Shown here piece after piece: positions 574-37,193 of a DNA stretch of 64,000 nucleotides (its first letter is position 1; every line of letters begins with the position of its first letter). The notes below the pieces were generated by a model. That model saw nothing but the letters and a program-made list of their open reading frames with translations, did not search any database and was not told the origin of the DNA. The stretch comes from an uncultured Gemmatimonadales bacterium (GTDB lineage Bacteria > Gemmatimonadota > Gemmatimonadetes > Gemmatimonadales > GWC2-71-9), in NCBI GenBank assembly GCA_963698975.1, contig CAVOSV010000001.1, positions 858,856 to 922,855 on the forward strand. The letters are read 5' to 3'. Both the position numbers and the translations under genes were made by a program.

Positions 574-615
574 GAAAAGGAGCGGGCTCCGGAAAGTCTT
601 TCCGGAGCCCGGCTC
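574..615 (-). terminator. Intrinsic terminator after lipoprotein 633-1031
   Basis: Stem gggctccggaaa/tttccggagccc followed by a T-run on the minus strand. Confidence 0.7.
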
Positions 616-632
616 ATGATCGTGGCGAGAGA

Positions 633-1031
633 CTAACGGTTGCTGGAGCTGTCGGCCGCAGTGGTGTCGCTCATGGCGCCGGTGCTGTCGGACCGCATGT
701 TGCTGGTGTCGGCGCTCGTGTTGCGCGGGCCGAGCGTGTCCTGCGGGGTCGAGCTCATACCCGTGGTATCCTGACCCATGGAAGTCGAATCTATCGCGCC
801 GGCGCCCTGGGTGGCTGCGGAGTCTATTCCCACGCTATCGGGGGTCACCGTCGCATTGCCCGGCCGCCCGCCCACACCCGGAGGTCCCGTGCGGGTACTA
901 TCGATCGCGTGAGTGACCGCCGTAGTATCGGTGCTACCCTGATCCGGCGCCGCGCCGACTTCCTCATCCGATCGATTGTGGCAGGCCGCTGACAGGGCCG
1001 CAGCCGCTACAAGAAAGAACAATTTCCTCAT
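633..1031 (-). CDS. Low-complexity Asp-Ser/Thr-rich lipoprotein (paralog 1)
   Basis: MRKLFFLVAAAALSAAC lipoprotein signal, AGGAG RBS, disordered tail with 11 D-[ST] motifs. Confidence 0.8.
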   Translation of the reverse strand: MRKLFFLVAAAALSAACHNRSDEEVGAAPDQGSTDTTAVTHAIDSTRTGPPGVGGRPGNATVTPDSVGIDSAATQGAGAIDSTSMGQDTTGMSSTPQDTLGPRNTSADTSNMRSDSTGAMSDTTAADSSSNR

Positions 1032-1161
1032 ACGACGCACGCTCCTACCTAGTTGACGTTGGCAGATCGAGGCCGCTGAACGCCTCAATCTGAGCAGGGC
1101 GTATTCAACATCACTAGGTCGTAGATCACATCGGGATCGCAGCAGCGCGGGAGGTCCCGGC

Positions 1162-1192
1162 AAAGAAAAGCGGCCCCAATCACTGGGGCCGC
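1162..1192 (-). terminator. Intrinsic terminator after lipoprotein 1215-1586
   Basis: gcggcccca-atcac-tggggccgc hairpin followed by TTTTCTTT on the minus strand. Confidence 0.8.
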
Positions 1193-1214
1193 GGTAAAGC
1201 AACTGCGATTCGGA

Positions 1215-1586
1215 CTACTGCTTCGTGCTGTCGGTGGGCGTAGACATGTTGCTGCTGTCCTGGCCCATGCTCCCCATGCTCGAGCTGTCGCTCGGCGTGG
1301 CAGACGAGCTGCTGGTGTCAGTAGGCGTAGCGCCCGTGGTGTCACCCGTCGGTGCAGCGGTGGTGTCGGTGCTGGTGGGTGCCGCAGTGGTGTCCTGCTG
1401 AACGAAGCTGGAGTCCGTCGCGCCTGGAGTCTGACCCATGGTGCTGTCAGTGGGCATGGCGGTGGTGTCCGTTGCGGTGACGGCAGTGGTGTCGCCACGA
1501 TCGGGCGCAGCACCGGTCTCGTCCTCGGAACGGTTGTGGCAGGCCGCCAAAGACGCCGCGGCAGCCAGCATCAGAAGGTAACGCAT
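1215..1586 (-). CDS. Low-complexity Asp-Ser/Thr-rich lipoprotein (paralog 2)
   Basis: MRYLLMLAAAASLAAC lipobox, GAGGAG RBS, CHNRSEDETGAAPD motif shared with paralog 1, 11 D-[ST] motifs. Confidence 0.8.
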   Translation of the reverse strand: MRYLLMLAAAASLAACHNRSEDETGAAPDRGDTTAVTATDTTAMPTDSTMGQTPGATDSSFVQQDTTAAPTSTDTTAAPTGDTTGATPTDTSSSSATPSDSSSMGSMGQDSSNMSTPTDSTKQ

Positions 1587-1780: not shown

Positions 1781-3788
<2,008 letters not shown>

Positions 3789-3807
3789 ATTTCCAGAACC
3801 TATCGGA

Positions 3808-3835
3808 GAGATCCTTCGCTTCGCTCAGGATGACA
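3808..3835. repeat. REP-like short dispersed element
   Basis: GAGATCCTTCGCTTCGCTCAGGATGACA (reverse complement TGTCATCCTGAGCGAAGCGAAGGATCTC), which I recognise as a widespread intergenic repeat type; one copy here. Confidence 0.65.
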
Positions 3836-3878
3836 ACGAGTTCTGCCCCACTGCCCCGCTGCCCCGGCCGCCCCGCGT

Positions 3879-5075
3879 TCACGATGTCGGCGGATTGAAT
3901 TGCGCGTGCTGCGCATCGAGCCACGACTTGTGGTAGTCCGGATCTTCAAGTGAGAGGGCGGGCTTGGCCACGTGGAGCGGCCGGAATGTATCCATCATGA
4001 CCGCCAGCTCCTCGGTGTATTTGGCCCCGATGCTTGCCTCGGCCCGACCGGGATGAGGGCCATGGGGAATCCCGTCCGGGTGATGCGTGATGCTGCCGAA
4101 TTCGATGCCCTTTCCGGCTCATGAACTCGCTCGAGGCGTAGTAGAGCACTTCGTCGGAATCGACGTTGCTGTGATTGTACGGGGCTGGCACCGCCTCCGG
4201 GTGGAAATCGTAAGGCCGCGGGCAGAAGCTGCAGACCACGAACCCATCGCCCTGGAACGTCTGATGGACCGGAGGCGGCTGGTGCACCCGTCCCACGATC
4301 GGTTCGAAGTCGTTGATGTTGAAGGCCCAGGGATAGAAGTATCCGTCCCAGCCCACCACGTCGAATGGATGGTGATCGAGGATGATCTCGTTCAGACCGT
4401 CGTACTGCTTGACCAGGACGCGGAAATCGCCCCTTCTCGTCGTGCGTCCGGAGCTGCGTGGGCCGCCGGATGTCGCGCTCGCTGTAGGGCGCTCCCTCGA
4501 TCAGCTGGCCGAATTCGTTGCGGTAGCGCTTGGGCCAGCGCACGTGCCCCCGGCTTTCCATGATCAGCAGCTTGGTCTGCTCGCCGCTCAGATCCAGCCG
4601 GTAGCGGTGCATGATGCCGCGATGGATGACCAGGTAGTCGCCCTCATGATAGGGCAGGTCGCCGTACATCGTCTCCAGCGTTCCGGCTGCCCTTGCTGAC
4701 GTACACCAGCTCGTCGGCCTGGGCGTTACGATAGAAGTGGGCGTCGTTCTCGTCCGGCTCCACATACAGCATGGCAACTTCGTTGTTGAACAGGAGCGGA
4801 GTGCGGTCGAGCGTCGGACTGCCCCCCGTCTTGATCTTGGAGGTGCGGAAATGCCGGTGCCGGAGCGTATTGTCCGGGTCCGCCTCGTATTTCATCTCCC
4901 GAAGGCGCTTGGCCGACTTCACCGTGGTAGGCGGGTAGGTGTGATACAGGAGCGACGAGGTTCCGGTGAACCCCTCATGTCCCATCAGCTCCTCGGCGTA
5001 GATCCCGCCATCCGGCTTCCGAAAGGCGATGTGCCGCTTCCGGGGTATTTGACCCATTGTGTGATAGATCGGCAT
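3879..5075 (-). CDS. hmgA: Homogentisate 1,2-dioxygenase (frameshifted)
   Basis: MPIYHTMGQIPRKRH, FYRNAQADEL, VVGWDGYFYPWAF, RVHQPPPVHQTF, PAPYNHSNVDSDEVLYY; lies downstream of hppD. Confidence 0.92.
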
Positions 5076-5086
5076 TTCAGATCTCC

Positions 5087-5174
5087 AACGGCGTGAACAA
5101 TGAACAGTGAACGGTAAATGGGAGGGCCGTGAAGCTGGGCCCGTTTACCCTTCACCGTCTTACCGTTCGCTGTT
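5087..5174. repeat. Inverted array of degenerate heptamers (TGAACRR/CCGTTYA) forming a long hairpin
   Basis: tgaacaa-tgaacag-tgaacgg-taaatgg ... ccgttta-cccttca-ccgtctta-ccgttcg between hppD and hmgA. Confidence 0.6.
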
Positions 5175-5176
5175 TC

Positions 5177-6300
<1,124 letters not shown>

Positions 6301-6395
6301 GCTGCCCCCTAAGCTGGCGTTGCTACCGAGATGTGAGGCTGAGCCAGGCGACGAACTCACGCCTAAATGGAATATAAACATGTGGTTACTCCCGA

Positions 6396-33704: not shown

Positions 33705-36700
33705 CTAGAGATCTGGCGTGCCGATGATCCGGCAGCTGGATAGATCGAGGCTGGTGCCGTCCTTCACGAATTCCACCCGAAATACGGGATGGCTGGTAAG
33801 CCGGCCGCCAAAGGCGTCCTTCCAGGACAGCCGCAATGCGAATTCCATGGACGCGGTAGCGCTGCCGATTCGCTGAGCCCCGTCTTCCCGTTCACCTACC
33901 TGAGCACTCCACTCGCTGGTACGCAGAATCCGGCTGAGCTTCTTCAGATTATCCTGGTCGGTCTTGGACTCGGGATGATAGAGTTCTTCCAGCTCACTGA
34001 CATCTTTCTGTGCCACCGCGTTGTAGCACTGGTCCACGCCTCGACGCATCTCATCGGTCAGCCGCAGTCGCTCAGCGGCCGGATCACTCGCAGGTGTAGT
34101 GGGTGACGAGCGCCGCGCCTCCTCCGCCGCGAGGTCCGCCCGGCTGGTTCGCGGCTGCGGAAGAACGGTGACTCTCACCTTTCCCGCTTTCCCGTCCACG
34201 CTGGCGCTGATGTCCGCGGTGCCCGCTGCCAGGGCTACGACCACGCCGGAAGAATCCACCGACGCCACGTCCGGATTGCTGCTGGCCCAGACTGCCGCGT
34301 GGCCGCTCAATTCCGCTCCACGCTGATCCTGCGGGGCTGCTCGAAGATCCAGAGTATCTCCCACCTTGAGCGGCCGGGCGCCGCTGACGTCGACCGACGC
34401 CACCGGCGCCGGAGCCACCGATACCGATGAGATTGCCGATTCCCCGCCGCTTCGGGCAATGATGAGCGTACCACCAGGTGCGCGAGCTCGAATGAGCCCC
34501 GAGCTCTGCTCGACTGAGGCGATCGACGGATCGCTGGAGCTCCAGGTTGCCCTCACGCCGGGGATGGGTTTGCCGCTCTCGTCCTGTCCGGAGAGCGCCA
34601 GTGTAAGCGTGTCGCCCACCTGAAGAGGAGCGGACGAAGCGATCGACAGGGAGGCAAGCTGCGGCAACACCGCAGGGCGCGGAGCCGAACGCACGACAAT
34701 TCCGGCGCTGTCACGGTGGCCCCCGGCGGCGGCAACGATCTGAGCCCGGCCGGGAGCCAGCGCCTGGACTACGCCGGCGGAATCCACCGTGAGCACCGTG
34801 CTATCGGTCGAGCTCCAGGAGATTCGCTCCGAACCCACCATCTTGCCGTTGCCATCACGCGATTCGGCACTCAGGGCGCTCGTCGCCCCTACGGCCAGCG
34901 AATGCGCCGGCCGCCGCGTAATCGTGACGGAAACAGGCGCGCTGGTGTCCACCACAGCGGAATCCGTCGGCTCACTGGCGGAAGCGATGAGGTAACCGGC
35001 TGAGCCGAGGCCGGGGTCTTCGGTACTTACCGAGGAGTCGCGCAGAGCGATGGCGGTATCCGGGATAGCGGGCAGGTCTCCCCGACCGCGTTCTCCAACC
35101 AGCCAGAAACCGCCTGCTACCAGGAACGCGCCTCCAGCTGCCACCAGCCATCCCGGCCGATGACGCGAGCGTCTGGGCTCCGGACTACGCGGTTCGGGCG
35201 GCAGCTCCCACGGGATCGGATCGGGGCGAGGACGGGAAACGATGGGTTCGGGAGTCCGATCGAGGACGTTCACACTGATGGAGGAGCTGACGCCTTCGCA
35301 CACGGCCGTGAGCATGATGTGACCGGGATTCCGGGTGATCACCCAGCCTCCCGCCGTCACCACCGCGGTGTTCACATCGCTGACGCTCCAGGCCACGCTC
35401 CTGTCGGTGAGCGCGCCGGCCCAGCGATCGAGCGGCGTGGCGGTCAGCGCGAAGGAATCGCCAGCTACAACGGAGTCCGGCGCCGCGGAGATATGCACCG
35501 CCGCCACCCTCGGAGGGAGGACCGTAACTCCGACGTTGGCCCGAGCTTCGTCGAGCTCCGCGATGACGCGAACGGAGCCGCCGGAACGGGCAGTCAGAAC
35601 TCCATCGAGGCTCACGGTTGCGACCGTGTCGTCCTCGGATCGCCAGGTGACGGGCCGGTCAAGCGCCCGTCCCCGTTTGTCCCGCGGTGTCGCCTCCAGC
35701 TGGATTTCGTCGCCCACTGTGATGGCTTTGTCGACCGCCTTCACAACGATGGAGTCGGCCCGGGGCGGCGCAACGGTGACCCGCAGCCGCCCCTCCTGAC
35801 CGTCGCAGATGGCACGAATCAGGGCCATCCCAGACGTGACGGCGGTGGCGACCGCCTTGGTGGCATTCACCCGGAGCACGCCGGGTGAGTCGCTGCTCCA
35901 CTGCACCGGACTGGTAGGCAGGCGAGCCGCCTGGCCATCGTGCACGCGCGCCACCAAAAGGAAGCTGTCGCCCACCTCGAGCCCGGCTGGAGGCGGAAGA
36001 ATGCTCACGGCGCGCATCATTCCCGGGGGAGTGGCCTGGAGTATGGCTGAGGACTTGGCGGCCGCGTGTGAGCCATTGCCCGAGCTCTCAAACGCGGTGC
36101 GAGCTCCGGCCATGGCAAATCGGCTCAGCTCGGCACGCGCCGGGTCGTCCTCAGGCAGGGCCGCGGCGCCGAGCGCCGTGAGCGCCTGCGTCATGCTGGG
36201 CCAGCGCTCCTCCGAATTCTTGGCCAGCATTCGGAGGATCGCGCTCTCCAGTTCAGGCGGACAGTCGCCCCGCTCGTGGAGAGGACGGGGTGGCTGCTCC
36301 ACGTGCGCCTGGATGACTGAATAGGTGGAGCCGTTGAAGGGTGGGGCGCCGGTGATCATCTCATAGGCCACCACACCCAAGGAGTACTGGTCCGAGGCCC
36401 CGGACACTTCACCACCGGCGCACTGCTCCGGACTCATATACGCCGGCGTTCCTACCATGAAGCCGGTGTGGGTGTGACTCGGCCCCTCCGCGGCCTTGGC
36501 GATGCCGAAATCGGTGACGACGGCGTTGCCGTCCCCATCGATAAGGATGTTCGCCGGCTTGATGTCTCGGTGCACCACCTTGAACCGGTGAGCGTAAGCC
36601 AGAGCCGAACCGACCTGGTACAGAATCGACCGGACCGTGGCGAGCGGCAGCCTGCCCGCATCCTTGAGTACCTCCTCCAGCGAGCGACCCTGGATGCAGC

Positions 36701-37193
36701 GCATGACGAAGAAGTGGAGACCTTCGGCGGCCCTCACCGAATACACCGAGACGATGTTGGGATGGTTGAGATGGGCGATGGTGATCGCTTCACGGCGGAA
36801 GCGGTCGATCATGCCTTCGCCCATCAGCAGCCCGGGCGACATCACCTTGATGGCCACATCGCGATGCAGGGACAGCTCGTGGGCCAGGAATACCGCGGCC
36901 ATCCCGCCCCGTCCCAGCTCGTGGCCGATTTCGAACTCGCCCATCGTGGCGCGCCGGAGCCGGGCTATGACTTCAGCCCAGGGAGATTCGTCTTCGGTCA
37001 GCTCGCCAGAAATCGAGTGAGAGTCAGGCCGGGGGATGCCTGGAGTGCCGCACTTGGGGCAGGTCTCGTCGGTCTGCAGAAGGAACTCGCCACAGCTCGC
37101 GCACCACAACAGCTCCGCTCCGCACTGGGCGCAGAAGCGGTCATCAGGCCCGAGCGGGCCAGTGCACTGAAGACAGGCAATAGGCGTGGTCAT
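33705..37193 (-). CDS. Hanks-type Ser/Thr protein kinase with double Zn ribbon, Big_2 repeats and one TM helix
   Basis: Four CxxC; LGRGGMAAV, VAIKV, HRDIKPANI, DFGIAK, GTPAYMSPEQ; about six WSSxD Big_2 units. Confidence 0.93.
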   Translation of the reverse strand: MTTPIACLQCTGPLGPDDRFCAQCGAELLWCASCGEFLLQTDETCPKCGTPGIPRPDSHSISGELTEDESPWAEVIARLRRATMGEFEIGHELGRGGMAAVFLAHELSLHRDVAIKVMSPGLLMGEGMIDRFRREAITIAHLNHPNIVSVYSVRAAEGLHFFVMRCIQGRSLEEVLKDAGRLPLATVRSILYQVGSALAYAHRFKVVHRDIKPANILIDGDGNAVVTDFGIAKAAEGPSHTHTGFMVGTPAYMSPEQCAGGEVSGASDQYSLGVVAYEMITGAPPFNGSTYSVIQAHVEQPPRPLHERGDCPPELESAILRMLAKNSEERWPSMTQALTALGAAALPEDDPARAELSRFAMAGARTAFESSGNGSHAAAKSSAILQATPPGMMRAVSILPPPAGLEVGDSFLLVARVHDGQAARLPTSPVQWSSDSPGVLRVNATKAVATAVTSGMALIRAICDGQEGRLRVTVAPPRADSIVVKAVDKAITVGDEIQLEATPRDKRGRALDRPVTWRSEDDTVATVSLDGVLTARSGGSVRVIAELDEARANVGVTVLPPRVAAVHISAAPDSVVAGDSFALTATPLDRWAGALTDRSVAWSVSDVNTAVVTAGGWVITRNPGHIMLTAVCEGVSSSISVNVLDRTPEPIVSRPRPDPIPWELPPEPRSPEPRRSRHRPGWLVAAGGAFLVAGGFWLVGERGRGDLPAIPDTAIALRDSSVSTEDPGLGSAGYLIASASEPTDSAVVDTSAPVSVTITRRPAHSLAVGATSALSAESRDGNGKMVGSERISWSSTDSTVLTVDSAGVVQALAPGRAQIVAAAGGHRDSAGIVVRSAPRPAVLPQLASLSIASSAPLQVGDTLTLALSGQDESGKPIPGVRATWSSSDPSIASVEQSSGLIRARAPGGTLIIARSGGESAISSVSVAPAPVASVDVSGARPLKVGDTLDLRAAPQDQRGAELSGHAAVWASSNPDVASVDSSGVVVALAAGTADISASVDGKAGKVRVTVLPQPRTSRADLAAEEARRSSPTTPASDPAAERLRLTDEMRRGVDQCYNAVAQKDVSELEELYHPESKTDQDNLKKLSRILRTSEWSAQVGEREDGAQRIGSATASMEFALRLSWKDAFGGRLTSHPVFRVEFVKDGTSLDLSSCRIIGTPDL

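Follow-up and report, generated by a model that had tools for sequence, protein, structure and literature searches.

What is a soil bacterium doing with two small lipoproteins, encoded one after the other, in which every aspartate of the tail is followed by serine or threonine? The genes lie on the minus strand of the window, by which we mean the whole 64,000-nucleotide stretch that was analysed (C1:858856-922855 of the source genome, labelled G000), and an earlier note on this DNA had read their products as candidate mucin-like O-glycoproteins. Lipoprotein A (123 aa) is an open reading frame at 1215..1586, with an SD-like GAGGAG at 1596-1601, a signal peptide (about 1539-1586) with lipobox Cys16, a predicted-disordered tail of 94 aa at 1218..1499 in which 11 D-[ST] sequons follow one another at intervals of 7-11 residues, and a terminator-like hairpin plus U-tract at 1170..1192. 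Lipoprotein B (132 aa) occupies 633..1031, with an SD-like AGGAG at 1042-1046, a signal at about 981-1031 with lipobox Cys17, a 102-aa tail at 636..941 with 11 D-[ST] sequons spaced 5-21 residues apart, and its own hairpin plus U-tract at 583..611; both terminators are consensus matches only. Neither gene gave a sigma-70 promoter match, Pfam returned no domain on A or B, and Rfam had 0 hits over all 64,000 nucleotides.

The heuristic lipobox call reads LAAC/SAAC in the A/B pair, the lipobox cysteine is invariant in 20/20 aligned homologs, and the two proteins open with a common head, C-H-N-R-S-x-x-E-x-G-A-A-P-D; we class both as predicted bacterial lipoproteins with a type II signal peptide, processed at that cysteine. 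The residues that follow it (C-H-N-R-S-E-D-E and S-D-E-E) form an acidic patch like SDDDD, but farther from the cysteine; the export signal of Bacteroidota surface lipoproteins (LES) is described as acidic at +2 to +6, with an optimum of C-X-K-(D/E)2 (PMC5080379). AlphaFold, run on an A/B family alignment of 20 sequences that is shallow, returned a mean pLDDT of 50.8 and zero secondary structure; the earlier note had expected disordered tails, and a model with no confident structure is consistent with that, as weak evidence.

How unusual is the motif? After GAAPD there are 11 aspartates in A and 11 in B, with serine or threonine next in 22/22, and our recount gave the same triplets as the earlier note, whose paralog 1 is our B and paralog 2 our A. 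Composition-preserving shuffles reached 11 in 12/200,000 trials for A (mean 5.0) and 1/200,000 for B (mean 3.8); the tail boundary behind these figures was chosen post hoc, and when the entire mature chain is counted, 11/13 aspartates carry the motif in each protein. The +2 residue is T, S, V, A or L at all 22 sites, which as sequences fit the Bacteroidota sequon D-(S/T)-(L/I/V/T/A/S/M). The minimum spacing, 7 residues in A and 5 in B, was matched by random placement in 1 and 850 of 100,000 trials, again with thresholds set post hoc.

The homologs tell the same story on a larger scale. A search found 434, and the motif counts come from the 120 matches listed, 119 of them with a parsable head, in which 1280/1358 tail aspartates precede S/T against 541 expected; 20 non-redundant homologs give 214/224 against 85. 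The comparison with shuffles that the earlier note had proposed thus comes out clearly, with D-[ST] retained in homologs far beyond shuffle expectation. Serine or threonine after aspartate is lost in 8.0% of 3846 aligned pairs, compared with 43.2% of 5350 for other S/T, a comparison that is partly circular because the alignments anchor on the motifs, while in the same pairwise alignments S and T swap for one another at the post-Asp position 30% of the time. Spacing falls at 7-9 residues in 145/194 intervals. The motif and its conservation are direct observations, and we regard the pattern in A and B as a real, selected feature.

The family itself was found in 18/24 genomes of the genus and in 0/16 genomes from two other families of the order, where low-complexity divergence may mask members. 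One homolog among the matches listed is named Gemmatimonadales, and in a FastTree analysis the PF11028 proteins of the source genome (discussed below) fall into two paralog clades alongside named Gemmatimonadota; both agree with the earlier note's guess of a probable Gemmatimonadota origin. Two longer homologs turned up; read-through or a frameshift apparently produced both, which leaves no fusion to a functional domain among them. In the ESM Atlas, recognition of the A/B family was below threshold; the commonest phyla in the nearest clusters (Gemmatimonadota, Acidobacteriota and Bacteroidota) are a lead only.

Does the signal extend beyond this pair? We called 3585 genes in the source genome with a simple model that missed gene A, in an assembly rich in frameshifts and with heuristic localisation classes, and compared observed with expected counts (O/E) of D[ST][ALVIMT]. 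Cytoplasmic proteins sit near expectation (1321/1245 = 1.06; 1766 proteins), Sec proteins reach 682/397 = 1.72 (350 proteins) and lipoproteins 418/228 = 1.83 (209 proteins). Among exported proteins, E[ST]H gives 0.68/0.81 and the reversed motif 1.01/0.95, and Glu, Asn and reversed versions show no enrichment: aspartate is not replaceable by glutamate, and the motif is order-specific. The +2 position favours T, L, V, A, I and M and avoids P, D, E, N and Q, a preference that matches the Bacteroidota glycoproteome motif as given in PMC12871550. The plain dipeptide D-[ST] is weak (1.12 in Sec proteins, 1.15 in lipoproteins), its signal coming from DS (1.38, 1.34) and not DT (0.84, 0.96), though the A/B tails are DT-rich; generic S/T-rich windows are barely higher in exported proteins (168/137) than in cytoplasmic ones (68/58).

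Across 34 bitopic Ser/Thr kinases, the motif stands at 16/27 = 0.60 on the cytoplasmic side and at 201/59 = 3.41 beyond the TM helix; with one kinase per cluster (17 clusters) the figures are 11/13 inside and 99/30 = 3.32 outside. The enrichment is confined to non-cytoplasmic regions of proteins in this genome. One such kinase, another likely substrate, lies in the window itself (33705..36944, minus strand); its 597 aa before the TM helix hold 3 sequons, and the 463 aa beyond it hold 7. Of the 58 genes for Hanks-type kinases in the source genome, 35 encode a TM helix; the outer domains of these are mostly large and sequon-rich, and TPR was found in both Hanks-type kinases that were scanned. 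The earlier note's sequon-based system thus gains a genome-wide statistical signal that tracks membrane topology; that the sites are glycosylated is what we infer from it.

Nor are A and B alone in their architecture. Eight other short disordered lipoproteins, picked by composition alone and, by inspection, unrelated in sequence, place 56/67 aspartates before S/T (18.9 expected). Short disordered lipoproteins built of nearly nothing besides D-S/T sequons and spacers are found at C1:931382-931825, C2:380137-380436, C2:555653-556204, C2:1710057-1710287, C2:1758446-1758613, C2:1890209-1890691 and C3:540188-540457. No lipoprotein from non-FCB genomes passed the disorder filter, which leaves this class without a direct negative control.

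What happens in other organisms? With the same pipeline applied to exported proteins, Bacteroidia loci gave 132/85 = 1.56 and 98/77 = 1.27, Zixibacteria 86/57 = 1.51 and five other Gemmatimonadota, pooled, 114/84 = 1.37 (G130 1.39, G092 1.40, G048 1.89, and G046 with G051 9/12 = 0.75). Non-FCB controls came to 131/141 = 0.93, from one Mb of Sinorhizobium, Cupriavidus, Azospirillum and Granulicella plasmids, not chromosomes. A record titled 'Sphaerochaetaceae' was dropped from these controls, its genome falling in the same phylum sample as Bacteroides; it carries a Bacteroidia-type PF11028 gene. A Latescibacterota genome (G185) has four PF11028 genes yet an exported O/E of 55/59 = 0.94 (35 proteins, a small sample), and four PF11028-positive genomes of the Bacteroidota phylum (G209, G226, G230 and G250), which apparently carry green-sulfur-like genes, reach 21/19 = 1.11 (17 proteins, likewise small) and have small lipoproteins without sequons; G222 gave 3/5. 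In one PF11028-positive lineage of that phylum (L305, L306, L310, L315, L319, L322-L324 and L327) we saw an Ala/Pro/Glu-rich small lipoprotein with zero sequons, possibly a case of natural loss or of changed specificity.

Which enzyme might read such sites? We started from the DUF2723/TMEM260 family (PF11028), which we took to be a lead for the core transferase. The source genome has two members, at C3:349908-352244 and C3:448777-451086, scoring 150 and 154 bits against a cut-off of 24.2. Among 14 control genomes the family turned up only in B. thetaiotaomicron, as one gene; it is found in 150/151 Gemmatimonadota genomes (a tally that includes the unpublished G085 and G124) and in 251/251 of Bacteroidota. 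When 1/64 of the species collection was scanned with a motif pattern built on the same sequences, which divergent non-FCB members may escape, 120 loci came up, 115 of them with titles that we take to be FCB-group and 1 from a mislabelled genome that falls in Bacteroidota. The presence and conservation of the family are, like the motif, observed directly.

Human TMEM260 needs D52, H67, R264, Y267, R355 and the base D441 (bioRxiv 10.64898/2026.03.17.711096; PMC10214176). Equivalents of D52, H67, R355 and the catalytic D441 are invariant in 82/82 full-length homologs, the first two by construction because both lie in the search pattern, and an R-x-x-Y at the R264/Y267 spacing occurs in 79/82, outside the HMM-aligned stretches. 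For the likeness to human TMEM260 the profile E is 2e-41; an enzyme model (pLDDT 84) has as its best fold matches only GT-C proteins, with Z up to 22.3 (rmsd 4.9, 424 aligned). Human TMEM260 is absent among the matches listed in two fold searches, so the match to it rests on sequence. Taken together, profile and model point to two TMEM260-like (GT117) enzymes, with the PF11028 domain, a predicted GT-C fold and intact catalytic residues. The likeness to the human protein (PDB 9rql) extends to fold and to the D52/H67/R355/D441 equivalents, but TMEM260 is reported to read a long Pro/Gly IPT-domain sequon, not D-S/T (bioRxiv 10.64898/2026.09.21.753134), its donor is Dol-P-Man, where we postulate a polyprenyl-phosphate carrier for the bacterial step, and the bacterial proteins add invariant arginines of their own (RERDY and others), which, we speculate, could read the aspartate.

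In Bacteroidota the core glycan starts with mannose, and its transferase, the initiating enzyme of the only known sequon-directed bacterial O-glycosylation system, is given as still undiscovered in a 2025 review, which suggests seeking homologs of eukaryotic O-mannosylation (PMC12871550). The P. gingivalis DUF2723 gene, PGN_0192, appears in a list of 463 putatively essential genes (PMC3547785), where it carries no polarity flag; such essentiality would explain why knockouts have missed it. All told, we lean towards PF11028 as the best candidate for the initiating transferase of D-S/T O-glycosylation. Around the PF11028 genes of 82 loci we found no conserved glycosylation neighbour except a polysaccharide deacetylase, whose gene lies within three genes of them in 23/82 (L056-L135). 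A short GT2 at C3:98523, resembling polyprenyl-phosphate sugar synthases and below all cut-offs, is a possible donor synthase. Directly before it, near lptC, comes a membrane protein of 770 aa that matches YfhO weakly, and the pair (L269:2218-5239 = C3:96218-99242) is a candidate lipid-linked sugar module.

How might the pieces fit together? We consider it likely that the D-S/T sites of A and B are glycosylated, and probable, with a little less assurance, that the two proteins are lipid-anchored, predicted-disordered carriers of 11 acceptor motifs each for Bacteroidota-type O-glycosylation, likely with TMEM260-like initiation. Sec export would come first, then lipidation at the lipobox cysteine. 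Homology and co-occurrence suggest that a GT-C enzyme of the PF11028 family, working on the outer face of the inner membrane, would next take mannose (or a core rooted in mannose) from its polyprenyl-phosphate carrier and attach it to the Ser/Thr after each Asp. Sites at every 7-9 residues would turn the tail into a bottle-brush glycopolymer tethered to the membrane, whose most likely role is that of a hydrated spacer in the periplasm or at the surface. The P. gingivalis glycan is 1.4 kDa (PMC8729774), and if each site bore something like it, the sugar would outweigh the chain of roughly 110 residues. The earlier note's O-glycoprotein reading is supported, then, and its 'mucin-like' survives as an analogy, the sites being apparently sequon-directed and not GalNAc clusters.

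The most serious competitor, which we think unlikely, keeps the glycans and changes the enzyme: another membrane transferase (a PMT_2-type GT-C, a Wzy_C/PglL-like ligase or a YfhO-like protein) would act on these sites, and PF11028 would have some other essential envelope role. The source genome has the means, with 7 PF13231, 2 PF04932 and one weak YfhO match, PF11028 does occur in lineages without visible enrichment, and Wzy_C is shared with B. thetaiotaomicron; against this, Wzy_C is also in 9/14 controls, PF13231 (PMT_2) and PF02366 (PMT) have no match in B. thetaiotaomicron, STT3 was not found in the source genome, and PF11028, which has a proven protein O-mannosyltransferase among its homologs, is alone among the five families searched in being confined to the source genome and Bacteroides. 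Rather less probable still is that the motifs go unmodified and serve a disordered envelope protein as structural or ion-binding elements (Asx/ST turns, Ca2+ sites), as the near-periodic spacing and acidic tails would allow, whereas an order-specific motif with the same +2 bias recurs in unrelated folded proteins, and there solely on the outer side of the membrane, neither Glu nor Asn substitutes for Asp, and non-FCB exported proteins lack the enrichment. Neutral expansion of a DNA repeat in a low-complexity gene, of which some homologs hint with short internal duplications, is largely refuted and very improbable, since A and B have no tandem array besides one 9-bp doublet and their motif codons vary across both Ser codon families, so that recent slippage does not explain the motifs, while D and S/T are selectively kept as spacers diverge and non-homologous lipoproteins carry the same motif.

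How close, with glycosylation by a TMEM260-like enzyme as the preferred reading, is this to what is known? The general O-glycosylation system of Bacteroidota (B. fragilis, P. gingivalis, T. forsythia and P. intermedia), as reviewed in PMC12871550, has the same D-S/T-(L/I/V/T/A/S/M), acts on non-cytoplasmic regions only and disfavours Glu, whereas here the phylum is another one. The motif-richest proteins of the source genome include PPIase, TamB and TPR proteins, classes reported as glycosylated in P. gingivalis (PMC8729774), and the glycoproteins of that species and of P. intermedia (PMC10897501) are described as mostly periplasm-facing. The review's text names Fibrobacterota as the only second enriched phylum and presents the metG-wzx outer-glycan (LFG) locus as not phylum-wide (PMC12871550); in our analysis a pattern search for metG gave no match.

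Bacteroidota also have lipoproteins of similar build, in the PG1828 family (NF050142), which matches in 37/61 of their genomes, 4 of them over the cut-off. From 30 loci parsed, 22 short matches have 54/70 aspartates before S/T (13.9 expected) and a spacing of 7-8 in 30/42 intervals; 9 loci with a near-identical signal have zero sequons. Like A and B these are short lipoproteins, predicted to be disordered, along which D-S/T recurs, and we considered and rejected membership of A and B in the family: with the cut-off at 50 bits, B reaches 20.8, over its N-terminal part only, and A has no match. The A/B tails are twice as long, T/S/G/P-rich and mostly DTT/DST, not DSA, behind a CHNRSxxExGAAP head. 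To judge by sequence, the PG1828-like proteins are another family with the same architecture. PG1828 of P. gingivalis has 4 predicted sites and is not among the detected proteins of the glycoproteome as described in PMC8729774.

Why does this matter? Our literature search, with limited coverage of subscription papers, found no paper on protein O-glycosylation in Gemmatimonadota, none on a bacterial role for DUF2723 and no bacterial member with a tested function, and our verdict is of a known type of O-glycosylation system whose signature appears in a phylum new to it, together with a candidate for the missing enzyme that can be tested. Having this signature in a second phylum cuts the candidates down to a core gene that both share. 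A gut-microbiome pathway would thereby be tied to an enzyme behind a human congenital disorder, glycoengineers would be offered a simple-sequon enzyme, and a major modification of the envelope would be added for a phylum abundant in soil. An evenly balanced proposition goes further: D-S/T O-glycosylation would be ancient in the FCB superphylum, TMEM260 relatives would be its missing core transferase, and at least nine unrelated lipoprotein 'glycan brushes' of Gemmatimonadales would have been built independently, with sequons at glycan-width spacing their sole conserved content, making A and B ready-made 11-site reporters for identifying the enzyme.

Some observations concern the surroundings of the genes. 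RNA-library contigs from close strains cover 1237-1637 of the gene A region and, for gene B, 626-840 and 840-1072; in four soil/rhizosphere RNA libraries (of 20 runs listed) A was found in 4/4 and parts of B in 3/4, coverage that, in libraries that may contain DNA, neither proves transcription nor ranks expression. An acyl-CoA ligase-like gene, named from its motif, adjoins the lipoprotein gene in 10/12 loci, and tandem lipoprotein pairs occur in 3/12. In the window, this gene and dioxygenase-like neighbours, named from sequence (1781-6381), are split over frames, probably by long-read indels, and related RNA contigs show single-base indel differences near 4107-4111 and 4687. On the other side the lipoprotein gene is followed by one for a GNAT acetyltransferase (18-539), an arrangement shared by 4/11 related loci.
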